From NCBI GenBank assembly GCA_965243395.1, contig CBDEUS010000001.1, positions 736,001-800,000 of the forward strand: a stretch of DNA of 64,000 nt. The letters are read 5' to 3'. A model generated the notes under the pieces. It saw nothing but the letters and a program-made list of their open reading frames with translations, did no database searches and was not told where the DNA came from. The translations under genes were made by a program, and so were the position numbers. The stretch's first letter is position 1; each line of letters begins with the position of its first letter. Source of the DNA: Gammaproteobacteria bacterium. Its GTDB lineage: Bacteria > Pseudomonadota > Gammaproteobacteria > UBA4575. Below are positions 53,135 to 58,605 of the stretch, one piece after another.

Positions 53135-54736
53135 ATGATGTCTCTTTCGCTGAACTGGCAGAACATTGCTTTGTCAGTGATAGTATGTGCATCTATAATT
53201 ATATTAATATATGCAATTCGCAAGCTATTGCAGCTAAGAGAGATTCGCAAAGAAAATAAAAAACTTAATCTGCTTACTTATCTTTCGCCTATATTACTTT
53301 TTTTCTTTATTTATTTATTTTACTTATCGCTCACACAAACATTAGAACCTATTTATTATTTCGTAGTGATCTCTGCATTTATCACTGCAGTGTTTGTGAG
53401 TTTTGCTATACAAACGCACTATGAAACGGCCGTTTCATTAACTAAATCAAAAGCGCTAGAACATTACTATGCTACGCATGATGATTTAACCGGATTGCCT
53501 AACCTAGGTTTTTTTAATGATCAACTTGAAAAAACGTTAGGAGTATCGCGCAGAGAAGACGATGAATTTGCACTGCTCTTTATCGGGTTAAATCGTTTCA
53601 AAGTGATTAACGAAACATTGGGTTATTTTGTGGGTGATGCTATTTTAAGTGAAATTGCAAACCGTATTCGTTCAGCGCTGAGAAAAACAGATTTAATTGC
53701 AAGATTAGGCGGAGATGAGTTTGCGGTACTTATTAATCCAGTATCAGCTCAGGGCCACATACATACCATTTCTAAAAATATTGCAGAATCCATTCAGGAA
53801 CCTTTGGCGGTGGAAGGCAAACCCACTGATGTGGGCGTTTCTATTGGTGTAGCGATTTATCCTAAGCATGCAAATAACAGTATTGAGCTGATTGAAAAAG
53901 CGCGTAATGCCATGATGGCATCTGAAAGATACGGGCGATCCGTGTTTATTTATGATGAAAATGCGGTTGATAACCAGATTGAAGACATCCAAATTATTGG
54001 CATGTTGCAACGTGCAATTCAAAAAGAACAACTCCTTGTTCTTTATCAACCTCAAGTACGATTAAGCGATGAAAAAGTAATTTCAGCCGAAGCTTTAATT
54101 CGATGGCAACATCCAAATTATGGATTACTCGACCCGGGTAGATTTATACCTTATGCTGAAAAGGCTGGCCTGATATTTGAAATTAATCTTTGGTTGCTTA
54201 AAAAAATCGTTGCATTGCTAGAAAACTGGCATAAGAAAAATCTTCTACTACCTATTGCATTTAATATCACTGCCAATGGGTTTTTGAACAAAGATTTTCA
54301 ACGTGAGCTTAATGCACAGCTTAAAGATCATCTGTGGTTAGCAAAAAACCTCAAAATTGAACTTACAGAAACATCCAGTATTGATCACGTCGAGGAAATT
54401 CATGAATCCATGCTTAATTATAAAAAGCGCGGCCTGAGTTTCAGCTTAGATGATTATGGAACCAAACATGCATCACTCGAGTATTTAAAGCGCTTGCCGT
54501 TTGACGAATTAAAAATTGACCAATCTTTTATGGTCAATGCTGCAACCGATGAAGACAGTAAAGCTATTATTCAACATGCGCAAGAAATTGCACGGCAATT
54601 GAAACTTTCTACCACAGCCGAAGGCATTGAAAATGAAGAGGTCTTAAAAATTGCAAAACAGGCTGGAATCAATAACGGTCAAGGGTATCATTTTAATTCT
54701 GCACTTGATGTGCATGCAATTGAGAAAATAATTTGA
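53135..54736 (+). CDS. membrane-anchored GGDEF-EAL protein (probable phosphodiesterase)
   Basis: Three TM; HDDLTGLPN; RKTD I-site; RLGGDEF; EALIRW, IELTE, LDDYGT, LKIDQSF, AEGIE, QGY. Confidence 0.92.
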   Translation: MMSLSLNWQNIALSVIVCASIIILIYAIRKLLQLREIRKENKKLNLLTYLSPILLFFFIYLFYLSLTQTLEPIYYFVVISAFITAVFVSFAIQTHYETAVSLTKSKALEHYYATHDDLTGLPNLGFFNDQLEKTLGVSRREDDEFALLFIGLNRFKVINETLGYFVGDAILSEIANRIRSALRKTDLIARLGGDEFAVLINPVSAQGHIHTISKNIAESIQEPLAVEGKPTDVGVSIGVAIYPKHANNSIELIEKARNAMMASERYGRSVFIYDENAVDNQIEDIQIIGMLQRAIQKEQLLVLYQPQVRLSDEKVISAEALIRWQHPNYGLLDPGRFIPYAEKAGLIFEINLWLLKKIVALLENWHKKNLLLPIAFNITANGFLNKDFQRELNAQLKDHLWLAKNLKIELTETSSIDHVEEIHESMLNYKKRGLSFSLDDYGTKHASLEYLKRLPFDELKIDQSFMVNAATDEDSKAIIQHAQEIARQLKLSTTAEGIENEEVLKIAKQAGINNGQGYHFNSALDVHAIEKII

Positions 54737-55817: not shown

Positions 55818-56615
55818 CTAGGAATAGATCGATAACCAATATCCACCCCAAATTATTAGAGCTACTCCCGTTATCATTCTAGTAGCCGTAGGCGAAATAG
55901 GTAAAACTTTTTCAAGTAATACAAAAATTGTTATGAGTATGACCCAAAGCATATTCATGACACCCACTGCAAACAAAATTAGCATTAATGCCCAACAACA
56001 ACCGACGCAAAATAGTCCGTGATGTAAGCCCATTTGTAATGCACCCATGTTTCCATCCTTCCATGCAGTCATAATAAATCCAATGGGTGTTCGGCATTGG
56101 TTTAGGCATACATCCTTAAGGGGTGTGAATTGATAAATTCCCGCGACAATTAGTATGCCTCCGCTTAACAAATAACTGCGGCTGTCCATCATAGGATCAA
56201 GCAAACCTCTTTCATGCAATGGCCATTGAATAAGGCTCACCACAATACTAAATACCCCCCAAGCCAATAGGTAACCTAATAAAAATAACCACGTAGGCGC
56301 ATAAGGTAACTGTTTTAGTTTTTTACTTTTGTTCACTGTAGCGAACATCGTAACCATAGGAACAACAGTGGGCGTCATCATGGCGACCATCATGGTGAAC
56401 CACATAAAAAACAGCATGAAAAAGTCATAACCGGTCCAAGGTCTTGTTCCGCTACGTGGAGGCATCCACATTTCTACCAAGTGCATGTTTTGCATGGCCC
56501 AGGCCATATAAAACATATAGGCCCAACCTGCTGCCGCCACTAAAAATAAGCCAGTAAGAATTATTTTTTTATCTTTATGACTCAATTGGCCAGATATTGC
56601 CGTATTATTAGTCAT
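55818..56615 (-). CDS. DUF2182 predicted metal-binding integral membrane protein
   Basis: MW.TMMVAMM.P, GIYQFTPLKDVCLNQCR.P, GLFCVGCCWALM, GVMN..W, LEK. Confidence 0.92.
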   Translation of the reverse strand: MTNNTAISGQLSHKDKKIILTGLFLVAAAGWAYMFYMAWAMQNMHLVEMWMPPRSGTRPWTGYDFFMLFFMWFTMMVAMMTPTVVPMVTMFATVNKSKKLKQLPYAPTWLFLLGYLLAWGVFSIVVSLIQWPLHERGLLDPMMDSRSYLLSGGILIVAGIYQFTPLKDVCLNQCRTPIGFIMTAWKDGNMGALQMGLHHGLFCVGCCWALMLILFAVGVMNMLWVILITIFVLLEKVLPISPTATRMITGVALIIWGGYWLSIYS

Positions 56616-56687: not shown

Positions 56688-57293
56688 ATGGCAATTTCAA
56701 ACTGGAAAGTTGAAGGAAAATATTTTGAATCATGTAATTGTGAAAATTTATGTCCATGCATTTTATTAAAAGACCCTACTGAAGGCTTTTGTGAAGCTAT
56801 GGTGGGTTGGGAAATTGAAAAAGGTCATTGTGAAGACGTATCTTTGGATGGAGTTAAAGTTGGTGTTTGGCTGCATGCTCCGGGCAACTTAACTGAAGGT
56901 AACTGGAAACTTGCCTTATATGTGGATGAAAGTGCAAGTGAAGAACAGTTTAATGCAGTTTGTTCATTATGGAGCGGTGAAGGCGGTGGTCATTTAGGTG
57001 TAATAGCAGGTCTTGTTGGGGAAGTTATGGGCGCAGAGAAAGCCAAGATTTCATTTGAATATAGTGATAATAAAAAACATTTAGTCATTGAAGGCGTGGG
57101 TGAGAACGAAATGGAACCCATGGAAGGAGCTGATGGCAGGAATGTGATTGTGACGGACCCACCATTAGCAGTTGCACCTAATAATCCAATTACGGTACAT
57201 GTTTCTACTAACGCACACTATGATGGCCACGGGCACACTTGGAAGCAAAGTGGTAAAGCTGGATTAGCGTCACCGTTTCAATACGGACCTTAA
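56688..57293 (+). CDS. DUF1326 protein
   Basis: G.YFESCNC...CPC.....PTEGFC, PGNL.EGNW...LYVDE.A. Confidence 0.92.
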   Translation: MAISNWKVEGKYFESCNCENLCPCILLKDPTEGFCEAMVGWEIEKGHCEDVSLDGVKVGVWLHAPGNLTEGNWKLALYVDESASEEQFNAVCSLWSGEGGGHLGVIAGLVGEVMGAEKAKISFEYSDNKKHLVIEGVGENEMEPMEGADGRNVIVTDPPLAVAPNNPITVHVSTNAHYDGHGHTWKQSGKAGLASPFQYGP

Positions 57294-57412
57294 ATTTCAA
57301 ACTTAACTTTTGATTGGCTAAGAGAATTTTCTTAGGGAATTGCTTTGCTTAAAAAAAGGAAGCAAGAGGAACAAGAAAGACAATAGAAAGTGGAGTTGGA
57401 AAAGAGGTTATC

Positions 57413-57503
57413 TATCTGGCAATCCCGCTGTCTTAGAATTCTTGCTTCCTTAGACCGGTAATTTTGCGCCCCTAGTTTTCACTAGGTTTGCCTTTTTCAG
57501 TAA
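57413..57503 (-). ncRNA. c-di-GMP-I (GEMM-I) riboswitch aptamer
   Basis: Minus strand CTGAAAAAGGCAAACCTAGT-GAAA-ACTAGGGGCGCAAAATTACCGGTCTAAG...AAGACAGCGGGATTGCCAG: GGCAAACC, GNRA-capped P2, GCGCAAA, CCGG.CTAA receptor, GCGGG.TTGCC; P1 CTG/CAG; G at the Vc2 G20 position. Confidence 0.92.
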
Positions 57504-57650
57504 GTTTTATTACCTCAAATTATTAATACACTACAAACTCTATCAAATTATATTAATTATGTGTATGGGGTTTACTTACGCATCTATTTATTTCAGTGAG
57601 TTACATTTGTTAAAACATGTTAATTAAATATAATCTTAATGAGCGGAGCT

Positions 57651-58544
57651 TTAAGGTATTGAATCTGTCTCGGTAAGAGTTGCTTCCGGTGTTTGTTGAA
57701 CTTTCTTTTCTCTCAGGATAATAATGCCTGCAACAATAATAAGCAGTGCTCCAGAAATTGTTATTAATGTCACCAACTCACCCCAGAATACCCAACCAAT
57801 AATTGCGGCAAATAAAATGGAAGAGTAGGTAAAAGGAGCAATTCTACTTGCGGGAGCAAGAATGTAGGATTTTGTAAGTAATAGTTGTCCTACGGTGCCG
57901 AAAGTACCCAATAGTAATAAAATAAACCATTCTTTATTGGTCGGGTTTTGCCAAAACCAAAATAATGGAAAAGCGGACACGGTTAAACTGATTAATCCAA
58001 AATAAAAAACAATTCTGCTTGTTGGCTCGCTAGCAGACATTCTTCTAATCGTAACTTTTGCAAGTGCAGCCAATGCACCGCCTAACAAGCCCACAAGTGA
58101 TGCAATATGGATAGTGCCGGTTGGTTTCAAGACTAGAATCACACCCAAAAAACCAATCATGACTGCCATGATCACTCTTAATGATATGTATTCGCTTAAC
58201 CATATAAAAGCAATGATAGGTATGAAAAGTGGAGCGCTGATTTTCAATAGCATCGCATCAGCGAGTGGCAGCTCAGCTAATGCATAAAAAAAACAATACA
58301 TCGCTGACACACCGGCTAAAGATCGTAAGAAATGCCAACGGATGTTGTCGGTTTTAAGTGTGTTAATTCCTAATTTAAATATAAGTGGTAATAAAACGAT
58401 TAATCCAAACAAGTTTCGAAAGAATACAACATTTTGACTAGGAAGATTGTCAGAAAGCAGTTTTACTAATGAGCCCATACCTACAAAGCATAGTTCTGCA
58501 AGCATTGCAAAAATGCAGCCAAGAATTAAATTATTTTTTTGCAT
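57651..58544 (-). CDS. DMT/EamA-family transporter
   Basis: Ten TM, FFRNLFG, LPLADA, APLF...A..WLSE, APFTYSSILFA; start taken at MQKNN. Confidence 0.9.
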   Translation of the reverse strand: MQKNNLILGCIFAMLAELCFVGMGSLVKLLSDNLPSQNVVFFRNLFGLIVLLPLIFKLGINTLKTDNIRWHFLRSLAGVSAMYCFFYALAELPLADAMLLKISAPLFIPIIAFIWLSEYISLRVIMAVMIGFLGVILVLKPTGTIHIASLVGLLGGALAALAKVTIRRMSASEPTSRIVFYFGLISLTVSAFPLFWFWQNPTNKEWFILLLLGTFGTVGQLLLTKSYILAPASRIAPFTYSSILFAAIIGWVFWGELVTLITISGALLIIVAGIIILREKKVQQTPEATLTETDSIP

Positions 58545-58581
58545 AAAAAAAAAGCCCTTACAGTATTTGCACTGTAAGGGC
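58545..58581 (-). terminator. intrinsic terminator of acnA
   Basis: Minus strand GCCCTTACAGT-GCAAAT-ACTGTAAGGGC followed by nine T. Confidence 0.9.
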
Positions 58582-58605
58582 ATATTCAAAGTTAGTTGCA
58601 AAAGT

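Follow-up and report, generated by a model that had tools for sequence, protein, structure and literature searches.

A c-di-GMP-I riboswitch with no sense gene directly downstream belongs to a multi-genus gammaproteobacterial family with a predicted switch helix at the aptamer P2 apex

We analyzed a stretch of 64,000 nt, hereafter the window, from the genome of a gammaproteobacterium of the UBA4575 lineage (assembly GCA_965243395.1, contig CBDEUS010000001.1, positions 736,001 to 800,000). On its minus strand, between an EamA/DMT gene and a convergent DUF1326 gene, lies a class I cyclic di-GMP (c-di-GMP-I, also GEMM-I) riboswitch aptamer that an earlier reading made from the sequence alone (the sequence-only reading) had described as an orphan. 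We find that this aptamer is part of a conserved unit. On comparison of the related copies, the units appear to form a new multi-genus gammaproteobacterial family, characterized by a switch helix that recruits the apex of aptamer stem P2, a C-rich linker of conserved composition and a promoter layout of the CRP/FNR type; a search of the full-text literature, with subscription journals and supplements outside its scope, found no description of it. We give about an even chance to the reading that the window element is a self-contained RNA gene with a c-di-GMP-gated terminator and is neither an mRNA leader nor debris.

The c-di-GMP-I model of Rfam (RF01051) is the sole match at the gathering threshold in the window, with a score of 83.3 bits (cut-off 35, E 6.4e-15) and untruncated coverage of model positions 1-87 of 87. 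This score is the third highest among the 21 copies scored. The 'CGCAAAA' and 'UGCC' segments match the consensus, and the ligand-contact bases are present (the equivalent of G20, the A after 'CGC' and the 3' 'GCC'). The base aligned immediately 5' of the first paired 'GC' is a G at 57492, in a column that we take to be position G20 in Vc2 numbering. In Vc2, G20 is reported to contact one of the ligand guanines, and an A occupies the position in relatives that sense cyclic GMP-AMP (cGAMP) (PMC6140456). The sequence-only reading had called a well-formed minus-strand aptamer with G at the selectivity position and had proposed a search with the Rfam model; the full-length match above the gathering cut-off and the G at 57492 bear this out, and the element is confirmed as a genuine predicted c-di-GMP-I aptamer. 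In two related units of the clade termed type A below (L082 and L085, from genomes G005 and G006), A replaces G at the G20 equivalent ('GAGC' for 'GGGC'). A G-to-A change at G20 is reported to let Vc2 bind both c-di-GMP and cGAMP (PMC6140456), and the ligand specificity of these two copies may differ.

The window genome (G000) is assembled in two contigs of 1.28 and 1.30 Mb with 38% G+C and contains four GEMM-I aptamers. Two of them head open reading frames (ORFs) in the classical manner and lack a 3' unit, and the other two, the window copy and a paralog on contig 2, share the aptamer together with a 3' extension. Contigs from one DNA run (X1) fork or break within 57403-57502 and their loose ends match the contig-2 paralog, which we read as an assembly-graph repeat and not as a biological joint. 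Using the contig-2 unit as query with a threshold of E <= 1e-10, we found the unit of ~180-200 nt in 19 of 56 genomes of the bacterial family. It is present in 14 of 14 genomes of the window genus g1 (G000 not counted), 2/2 of g9, 1/1 of g6 and 1/1 of g2, and in none of g3 (0/13), g7 (0/16), g5 (0/3), g10 (0/2), g4, g8 and g11 (0/1 each). Outside the bacterial family, 16 genomes of the class yielded a single weak match (E 6e-5), confined to the aptamer part. A metagenome scan contributed 8 additional loci, 4 of them new variants. Some 30 members of the family have been sequenced, from four genera and with 1-2 copies per genome, and a GEMM-I-clan match was obtained in all 20 loci scanned among relatives and own-genome paralogs. 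The block that is conserved covers query positions ~15-214, beginning about 45 nt before the aptamer and extending through the end of the CCUUGCUUCC word, where the similarity stops. In a tree of 24 units the window copy falls outside a 17-member clade (type A, support 94/88), in a basal grade. A mobile or phage origin was considered and set aside, with 0 matches in viral contigs and no flanking repeats noticed while reading the loci.

Downstream of the window aptamer, a pyrimidine-rich linker leads to UCUUGCUUCC, which is the exact complement of GGAAGCAAGA in apical P2 (57449-57440), and a U7 tract follows straight after (Table 1). In the 64-kb window TCTTGCTTCC has a single occurrence, and so does its complement, 2 matches against 0.19 expected. 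The minimum free energy (MFE) fold of the window RNA pairs AAGGAAGCAAGA with UCUUGCUUCCUU at -36.4 kcal/mol, compared to -28.0 kcal/mol for the fold constrained to the Rfam aptamer. Because the bases of the P2 apex are shared, the modeled switch helix and the aptamer fold are mutually exclusive. With 10-12 bp (57451-57440/57367-57356), G+C content in the stem, a U tract and bases in common with the aptamer, the site resembles an intrinsic terminator on the minus strand; on the plus strand the hairpin has no U tract behind it. The sequence-only reading had recognized no expression platform, and the switch helix with U7 provides a candidate for one. Canonical terminators are also used by this genome, for example after the aconitase gene. 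Two further Rfam matches at 57352-57451, Plastid-psbA-3 (24.4 bits) and MIR528 (19.6 bits), are both far below their cut-offs and were discarded as generic hairpin resemblance.

To describe the platform across the family, we aligned 24 units, the window copy and 23 others. The 10-bp family helix GGAAGCAAGG/CCUUGCUUCC pairs in 99.2% of cells, a fraction that drops to 33-54% if the 3' partner is displaced by 1-3 columns, and the long-range helix is part of the MFE structure of 24/24 units as well as of the RNAalifold consensus. Eight of the 10 pairs are invariant. The remaining two change on both sides from G-C to A-U, in 4 cells altogether: one in both G019 copies and the other, at the next position, in the window copy and G007_b, with the changed pair of the window copy lying at the inner end of the helix. 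The helix has a covariation score of 0.077, which none of 500 shuffles reaches (shuffle mean 0.058). If the 3' strand of the helix is blocked, the loss is smallest in the window copy (7.7 kcal/mol) and reaches 17 kcal/mol in other copies. A further, inner helix (ACAGCG/CGCUGU), paired in 80% of cells, is missing from the window copy. In aptamers of this class the P2 apex usually varies, and its near invariance in the family would be best explained by the switch-helix pairing.

The linker measures 47-57 nt in 24/24 copies, with 25-37% C and 6-15% G in a genome of 38% G+C. Between the window copy and the others its identity is 41-55%, compared to 82-92% for the aptamer; what is conserved in the linker is its composition and not its sequence. 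Its length appears to vary by repeat slippage, since L107, a metagenome variant of the G003_b unit, has extra CCCATT repeats relative to G003_b. By general rules, such a composition would fit an unstructured spacer, a Rho loading site or a single strand resembling an anti-Shine-Dalgarno sequence. Several pairings of 4-5 bp between the leader (GAGGAG) and the linker can be drawn by eye and are absent from the RNAalifold consensus; we make no claim for them. The P2 apex of type A, GCAAGGAU, is CsrA-like, and the idea of a CsrA sponge was dropped because its GGA is absent in the window copy, G007_b, G009, G003_b and G019.

The absence of a sense gene is as the sequence-only reading had described it. 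Reading directly the 121 nt of the minus strand between the aptamer and the DUF1326 stop (57293), we found no ATG or GTG, and no downstream minus-strand ORF of at least 30 amino acids begins before DUF1326 except a TTG frame at 57300, antisense within DUF1326. Two small sense ATG frames start at least 250 nt downstream, inside the DUF1326 antisense region, and have no Shine-Dalgarno-like sequence. With no sense ORF or ribosome-binding site directly downstream, the window copy does not qualify as a classical 5' leader. The earlier statements that ~120 nt before the DUF1326 stop hold no ORF with a Shine-Dalgarno sequence and ATG, that the next sense gene is ~800 nt away (PpoB2/DUF2182, starting at 56615) and that a GGDEF-EAL gene lies under 3 kb away (2.7 kb as measured) are all accurate, and the translated small ORF that would have changed the picture is not seen in the 121 nt downstream.

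Signals resembling a promoter precede the aptamer throughout the family. A TAnAnT hexamer stands 38-44 nt upstream of the aptamer 'CTG' in 29/29 units, at -42 in the window. Further upstream, at -75 to -81 from the same CTG, 27 of the 29 units have a TGTGN word, mostly in the form TGTGA-N6-(C/T)TCAA, which stands 37 nt before the -10-like hexamer (27/29 units; e.g. L075, L078). If transcription starts ~7 nt past the TAnAnT hexamer, the TGTGA site would be centered at about -41.5. A center near -41.5 is the geometry of class II CRP/FNR-dependent promoters, and we infer that the family units carry a promoter with this layout. The window genome has four genes for CRP/FNR-type helix-turn-helix proteins. 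The window copy also has a TTGATA-16-AATAAT arrangement that matches a sigma-70-like pair at 10/12 positions; a promoter scan of the region gave 10 promoter-like sites against 7.1 expected, and the sigma-70-like match is weak on its own.

The site that the unit occupies in the window is variable among relatives. None of nine loci with EamA orthologues (75-86% identity) has any Rfam match. The closest relative, with 98% identity in aconitase and 96.5% in DUF1326, keeps the order HflD-Acn-EamA ... DUF1326-PpoB2 and has a gap of 2.2 kb between EamA and DUF1326 (L025:4934-7140) that contains an inorganic pyrophosphatase gene (ppa), an SbtA-type bicarbonate transporter gene (sbtA) and a P-II-like gene, with no riboswitch. 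These three genes are absent from this site in the window. Because the syntenic loci lack a riboswitch and the closest relative holds three other genes, the window unit is most simply seen as a lineage-specific arrival at a variable site and not as the remnant of a deletion of its own downstream gene here. The relic after gene loss, one of four options listed in the sequence-only reading, therefore has no support at this locus. Two related copies (G003_b and G019_b) head a sense gene, so a relic at the level of the lineage is possible. In the window, DUF1326 and PpoB2/DUF2182, which commonly form a gene pair, diverge from a 72-nt gap, and the same arrangement is found in the closest relative.

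A comparison of the downstream context in relatives, also proposed in the sequence-only reading, shows that partners vary between loci. First neighbors were tallied at the 24 aligned loci, which are mutually related. Convergent neighbors are DUF1326 in the window, DUF455 for G007_b and G009, a glycine-zipper protein for G019_a, a metalloprotease for G022, a member of a ~125-amino-acid family for G015_b and a 24-25-amino-acid ORF at nine type A loci. Sense neighbors are katG, ~270 nt past the unit (G000 contig 2, G012), globin, DUF2845 or isochorismatase genes at 256-436 nt (G041, G015_a, G001) and genes of the ~125-amino-acid family at 56-135 nt (G003_b, G019_b). Upstream genes vary as well and are often divergent. 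Two species share, in conserved synteny, a copy that has no close downstream sense ORF (G007_b, G009).

We hypothesize that the window element works as follows. Transcription probably begins at its own promoter, at ~57530 or ~57512, and the aptamer would be transcribed ~60 nt ahead of the competing strand. In the absence of ligand, the exposed apical loop would nucleate pairing with UCUUGCUUCC, the 10-12 bp helix would form, and U7 would release an RNA of ~160-180 nt near 57351, 57 nt short of DUF1326. Binding of c-di-GMP would lock P2 in the aptamer fold and prevent the helix, and the polymerase would read on, producing antisense RNA that enters the convergent DUF1326 gene from its 3' side, where the stop lies 57 nt after U7. 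An independent RNA gene is favored because the conserved block has defined ends, the -10-like box is fixed and the flanks are variable, and the concentration of divergence in the linker with the aptamer kept is the pattern of selection that we would count for a functional RNA gene. The sequence-only reading had chosen none of its four options; the conserved promoter-like block and the variable flanks favor the two of antisense RNA and stand-alone RNA. Its description of the element as aimed at DUF1326 stands as far as the convergent gene is concerned and holds as a whole only if the U7 terminator is read through.

Several observations weigh against this reading. The helix encloses ~72 nt, far above what is usual for the compact, short-looped hairpin of an intrinsic terminator, and a simple terminator scan of the region did not flag the helix and U7 site. 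The 251-nt region folds no better than its shuffles (z = -0.53). The covariation is modest, with 8/10 pairs that never vary and two both-side-changed pairs being reached by 61/500 shuffles. The U tract is not conserved, the first 8 nt after the helix being T in 7/8 positions in the window versus 1-6/8 in the 23 others; termination at that place is therefore not the common mechanism of the family. The shared role of the helix looks like conformational switching, perhaps with marking or protection of the 3' end, and intrinsic termination like a speciality of the window copy. The TGTGA word is absent from the window copy, as from one metagenome copy, and its equivalent at ~57565-57580 is degenerate (TGCGT...). 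The window copy also has the longest end branch of the 24-unit tree (0.29), and its flanks match no other searched genome, making the copy specific to this genome at this locus. Because of these three features it may be weakly expressed or decaying. C-rich, G-poor RNA is a loading site for Rho, and the C-rich linker fits such a site, which could reverse the polarity of the switch. Finally, an excess of convergent neighbors is unconvincing: of 24 non-independent loci, 15 have a convergent first neighbor and 7 a sense one, and 2 are unclear.

Table 1. Features of the riboswitch unit and of its neighborhood in the window
Feature	Position	Strand	Remark
c-di-GMP-I (GEMM-I) aptamer	57415..57502	-	Rfam RF01051 match, full length
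Promoter-like region	57537..57546	-	TAGAGT 57542-57537 at the family -10-like position; TTGATA 57546-57541 as alternative -35-like hexamer
AATAAT, -10-like hexamer of the alternative promoter	57519..57524	-	would predict a transcript start at ~57512
5' strand of switch helix, AAGGAAGCAAGA	57440..57451	-	apical part of aptamer stem P2; pairs with 57367-57356
Pyrimidine-rich linker, 47 nt	57368..57414	-	C 30%, G 6%
3' (anti-aptamer) strand of switch helix, UCUUGCUUCC	57358..57367	-	complement of the P2 apex
U7 tract	57351..57357	-	straight after the helix; with it, intrinsic-terminator-like site
DUF1326 gene	56688-57293	+	convergent; PF07040, E 1.1e-48; stop 57 nt past the U tract
EamA/DMT gene	57651-58601 (as listed)	-	upstream neighbor; Pfam
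PpoB2/DUF2182 gene	55818-56615	-	next sense gene, start 56615, 800 nt off
GGDEF-EAL gene	53135-54736		2.7 kb from the aptamer
DUF1097 gene			further neighbor; Pfam

It is conceivable, although we consider it rather improbable, that the short RNA itself is the product, a trans-acting or ligand-buffering small RNA (sRNA) for which read-through into DUF1326 is irrelevant. c-di-GMP would toggle such an RNA between two states, one closed, its 3' end locked on P2, and one open, its CU-rich tail free and resembling an anti-Shine-Dalgarno sequence. The toggling could alter the stability of the RNA, its partners (for example mRNAs, Hfq and Rho) or the pool of free ligand. Conservation that stops exactly at the helix with unrelated partners beyond, and a linker whose composition is kept as its sequence and length drift (one CCCATT expansion), would be expected of such a product; genes for Hfq, Rho and CsrA are found in the genome, and merRNA (PMC3627812) and Vc2-bearing sRNAs (10.1101/617340) are reported precedents. 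The family shares with merRNA-like sRNAs a block with defined ends, the lack of a conserved downstream ORF and predicted transcription signals. Pairings of the linker with the leader or with mRNAs are, however, unsupported by the consensus fold, and the apical GGA motif that would hint at CsrA is missing from the window copy and other basal copies. A broader form of the idea, which we put forward tentatively, is that a promoter-riboswitch cassette has turned into a family of free-standing c-di-GMP-sensing sRNAs that flip between closed and open forms. The open form would expose a 50-65-nt CU-rich tail acting in trans, or would extend as antisense over the opposite gene, a toxin-like ORF at the main paralog and DUF1326 here.

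Alternatively the window copy may be a paralog that is neutral or in decay: a copy of a cis-acting promoter-riboswitch cassette would have arrived between EamA and DUF1326 without cargo and would now be idle. The copies G003_b and G019_b, located 56-135 nt upstream of homologous ~125-amino-acid genes, are what such a cassette would look like with its cargo, and two more copies adjoin that gene family in other orientations; the missing TGTGA, the longest branch and the genome-specific location of the window copy point the same way. We nevertheless regard decay as unlikely, given an aptamer of 83.3 bits that ranks third of 21 copies, a helix kept through a both-side change, a perfect U7, divergence that is concentrated in the linker instead of being uniform, and the maintenance in G007_b and G009 of a copy without a close sense ORF in the same synteny. 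A Rho-dependent switch of opposite polarity seems doubtful. There, c-di-GMP would leave the 3' domain single-stranded for Rho to terminate, the helix would partly hide the site in the absence of ligand, and the window copy would terminate in both states. The linker composition in 24/24 copies (25-37% C, 6-15% G at 38% genomic G+C), the lack of a U tract in most copies and a rho gene in the genome are consistent with this, and Rho-dependent riboswitches are reported in Proteobacteria (PMC5499598, PMC10946432), but the C-rich stretch is only ~57-65 nt long, and U7 in the window argues for intrinsic termination without ligand. Least credible of all is a 3' untranslated region (UTR) element of the upstream EamA gene, another option of the sequence-only reading, or a mere terminator between convergent genes. 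A terminator scan found no terminator-like site between the EamA stop (57651) and the aptamer, so read-through from EamA is possible. A 3' UTR role is disfavored because the units of relatives follow unrelated, often divergent genes, keeping their own promoter-like motifs, and 0/9 EamA orthologue loci carry the unit; the hairpin on the plus strand, lacking a U tract, speaks against a terminator serving both genes.

At the EamA locus we also noted that the aconitase terminator (58581-58554, a 12-bp stem and a T run) falls inside the TTG-extended EamA frame; for this reason the true EamA start is probably the ATG at 58544 and not 58601.

The type A units face a small ORF of 24-25 codons with a hydrophobic product (MYDxIYLI..VIWSN.KK.) and a strong GGAGG ribosome site, convergent with the riboswitch RNA. 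On contig 2 of G000 it lies at 391590-391664 (L074:3591-3665, plus strand), and further loci are L079, L081, L077, L078, L082, L084, L085, L087, L101 and L104. Its stop is located 50-70 nt past the unit in 9 genomes of the genus, in at least 4 different gene contexts. In G000 and G012, katG stands between the type A unit and the ORF; G007_a has an in-frame stop and G011 has no ATG. A comparison of the 25-amino-acid product with NCBIfam and Pfam gave no family match. By analogy, the type A arrangement is like that of a type I toxin-antitoxin locus and of the riboswitch-antitoxin RNAs of Clostridioides difficile, with the small ORF as putative toxin. At the window copy no small hydrophobic ORF overlaps or converges.

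The ~125-amino-acid proteins form a second group that recurs near the units. They are all-helical, with three conserved Cys and the motif MPSPKYFEQ.AV.SRKEK.YENEIAIC, and are encoded at L095:1068-1463 (-), L097:946-1308 (-), L098:1676-2101 (-), L105:2176-2577 (+) and G000 contig 2: 1103956-1104312. Four basal-type units adjoin a member, which is sense downstream in 2 cases, convergent in 1 and divergent in 1, and the aptamer is found at only 2/30 other retrieved loci of the protein family. In one relative, the EamA orthologue is closely followed by a member, which is the last gene of an operon that also includes a hybrid histidine kinase and two receiver genes. No Pfam family was matched; the nearest Atlas clusters are unnamed hypothetical proteins, clusters with a Pfam family scoring <0.9. 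The predicted all-helical structure (predicted local distance difference test, pLDDT, 84.9) gave no PDB match at E <= 0.001.

The riboswitch-bearing non-coding RNA as a kind is already known. In C. difficile, the c-di-GMP-I riboswitches cdi1_4 and cdi1_5 are reported to have their own promoter and to precede the antitoxin RNAs RCd11/RCd12, yielding an antisense RNA in a terminated form of ~140 nt and a read-through form of ~400 nt (Peltier 2020, PMC7699646; review PMC11477304). The window copy is similar in that a class I aptamer with its own predicted promoter would head a non-coding antisense RNA in short and read-through forms, and the type A paralog is similar in being convergent with a tiny hydrophobic ORF. 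As described in these sources, the C. difficile system differs in residing in a Firmicute prophage, in using a conventional terminator, in that most switches turn off with ligand and in a second, stronger promoter that makes the functional antitoxin. The window copy, for its part, faces DUF1326 instead of a toxin-like ORF, and its terminator strand pairs with the P2 apex across ~72 nt. The same review also names an orphan c-di-GMP-I riboswitch in C. difficile for which it gives no function (PMC11477304). In Bdellovibrio bacteriovorus, merRNA is reported as a riboswitch-bearing non-coding RNA and proposed c-di-GMP reservoir (PMC3627812). Both merRNA and the present family place a c-di-GMP riboswitch in a non-coding RNA without a conserved downstream ORF, but merRNA, as reported, is 445 nt long, massively expressed and found in Bdellovibrio only, with a reservoir role that rests on its abundance, whereas the predicted unit of the family described here is ~180 nt and is spread over four genera.

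The gammaproteobacterial GEMM-I aptamer Vc2 of Vibrio cholerae is reported to stabilize, in a c-di-GMP-dependent manner, sRNAs in which it occupies the 3' end (10.1101/617340). Vc2 thereby defines or protects the 3' part of sRNAs depending on the ligand, in likeness to the role considered here; according to this report Vc2 also stands upstream of tfoY and the sRNAs end right after the aptamer, whereas our family has a conserved 3' domain of 60-70 nt and usually no close sense gene. For a riboswitch that decides the extension of an antisense RNA over a convergent gene, there are examples with other ligands. The B12 riboswitch with AspocR in Listeria is a riboswitch-controlled antisense RNA. An S-box antisense RNA is reported for the ubiG operon of C. 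acetobutylicum (cited in PMC3627812). In both, the control was tested experimentally; for the window copy we infer it. The Bc1 c-di-GMP-I riboswitch of Bacillus thuringiensis is comparable in being a GEMM-I aptamer whose expression platform is unusually long, with termination at more than one point (PMC11218506). As reported, however, Bc1 precedes a coding gene, and its two terminators are local and of the typical form.

A riboswitch is defined by the gene that it precedes, and the few c-di-GMP aptamers without a gene (merRNA, the C. difficile orphan) are single-lineage curiosities. For annotators, the present family means that a missing downstream ORF need not signal a relic. Its natural variants, among them the window copy and its perfect U tract, units that have a sense gene and others opposite a tiny hydrophobic ORF, can be used to ask whether a second-messenger aptamer can serve as the sensor domain of a small or antisense RNA. 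If the reading as an sRNA family is true, c-di-GMP would gain a post-transcriptional regulon via an RNA receptor. At the window locus, c-di-GMP probably controls an RNA instead of a coding gene.

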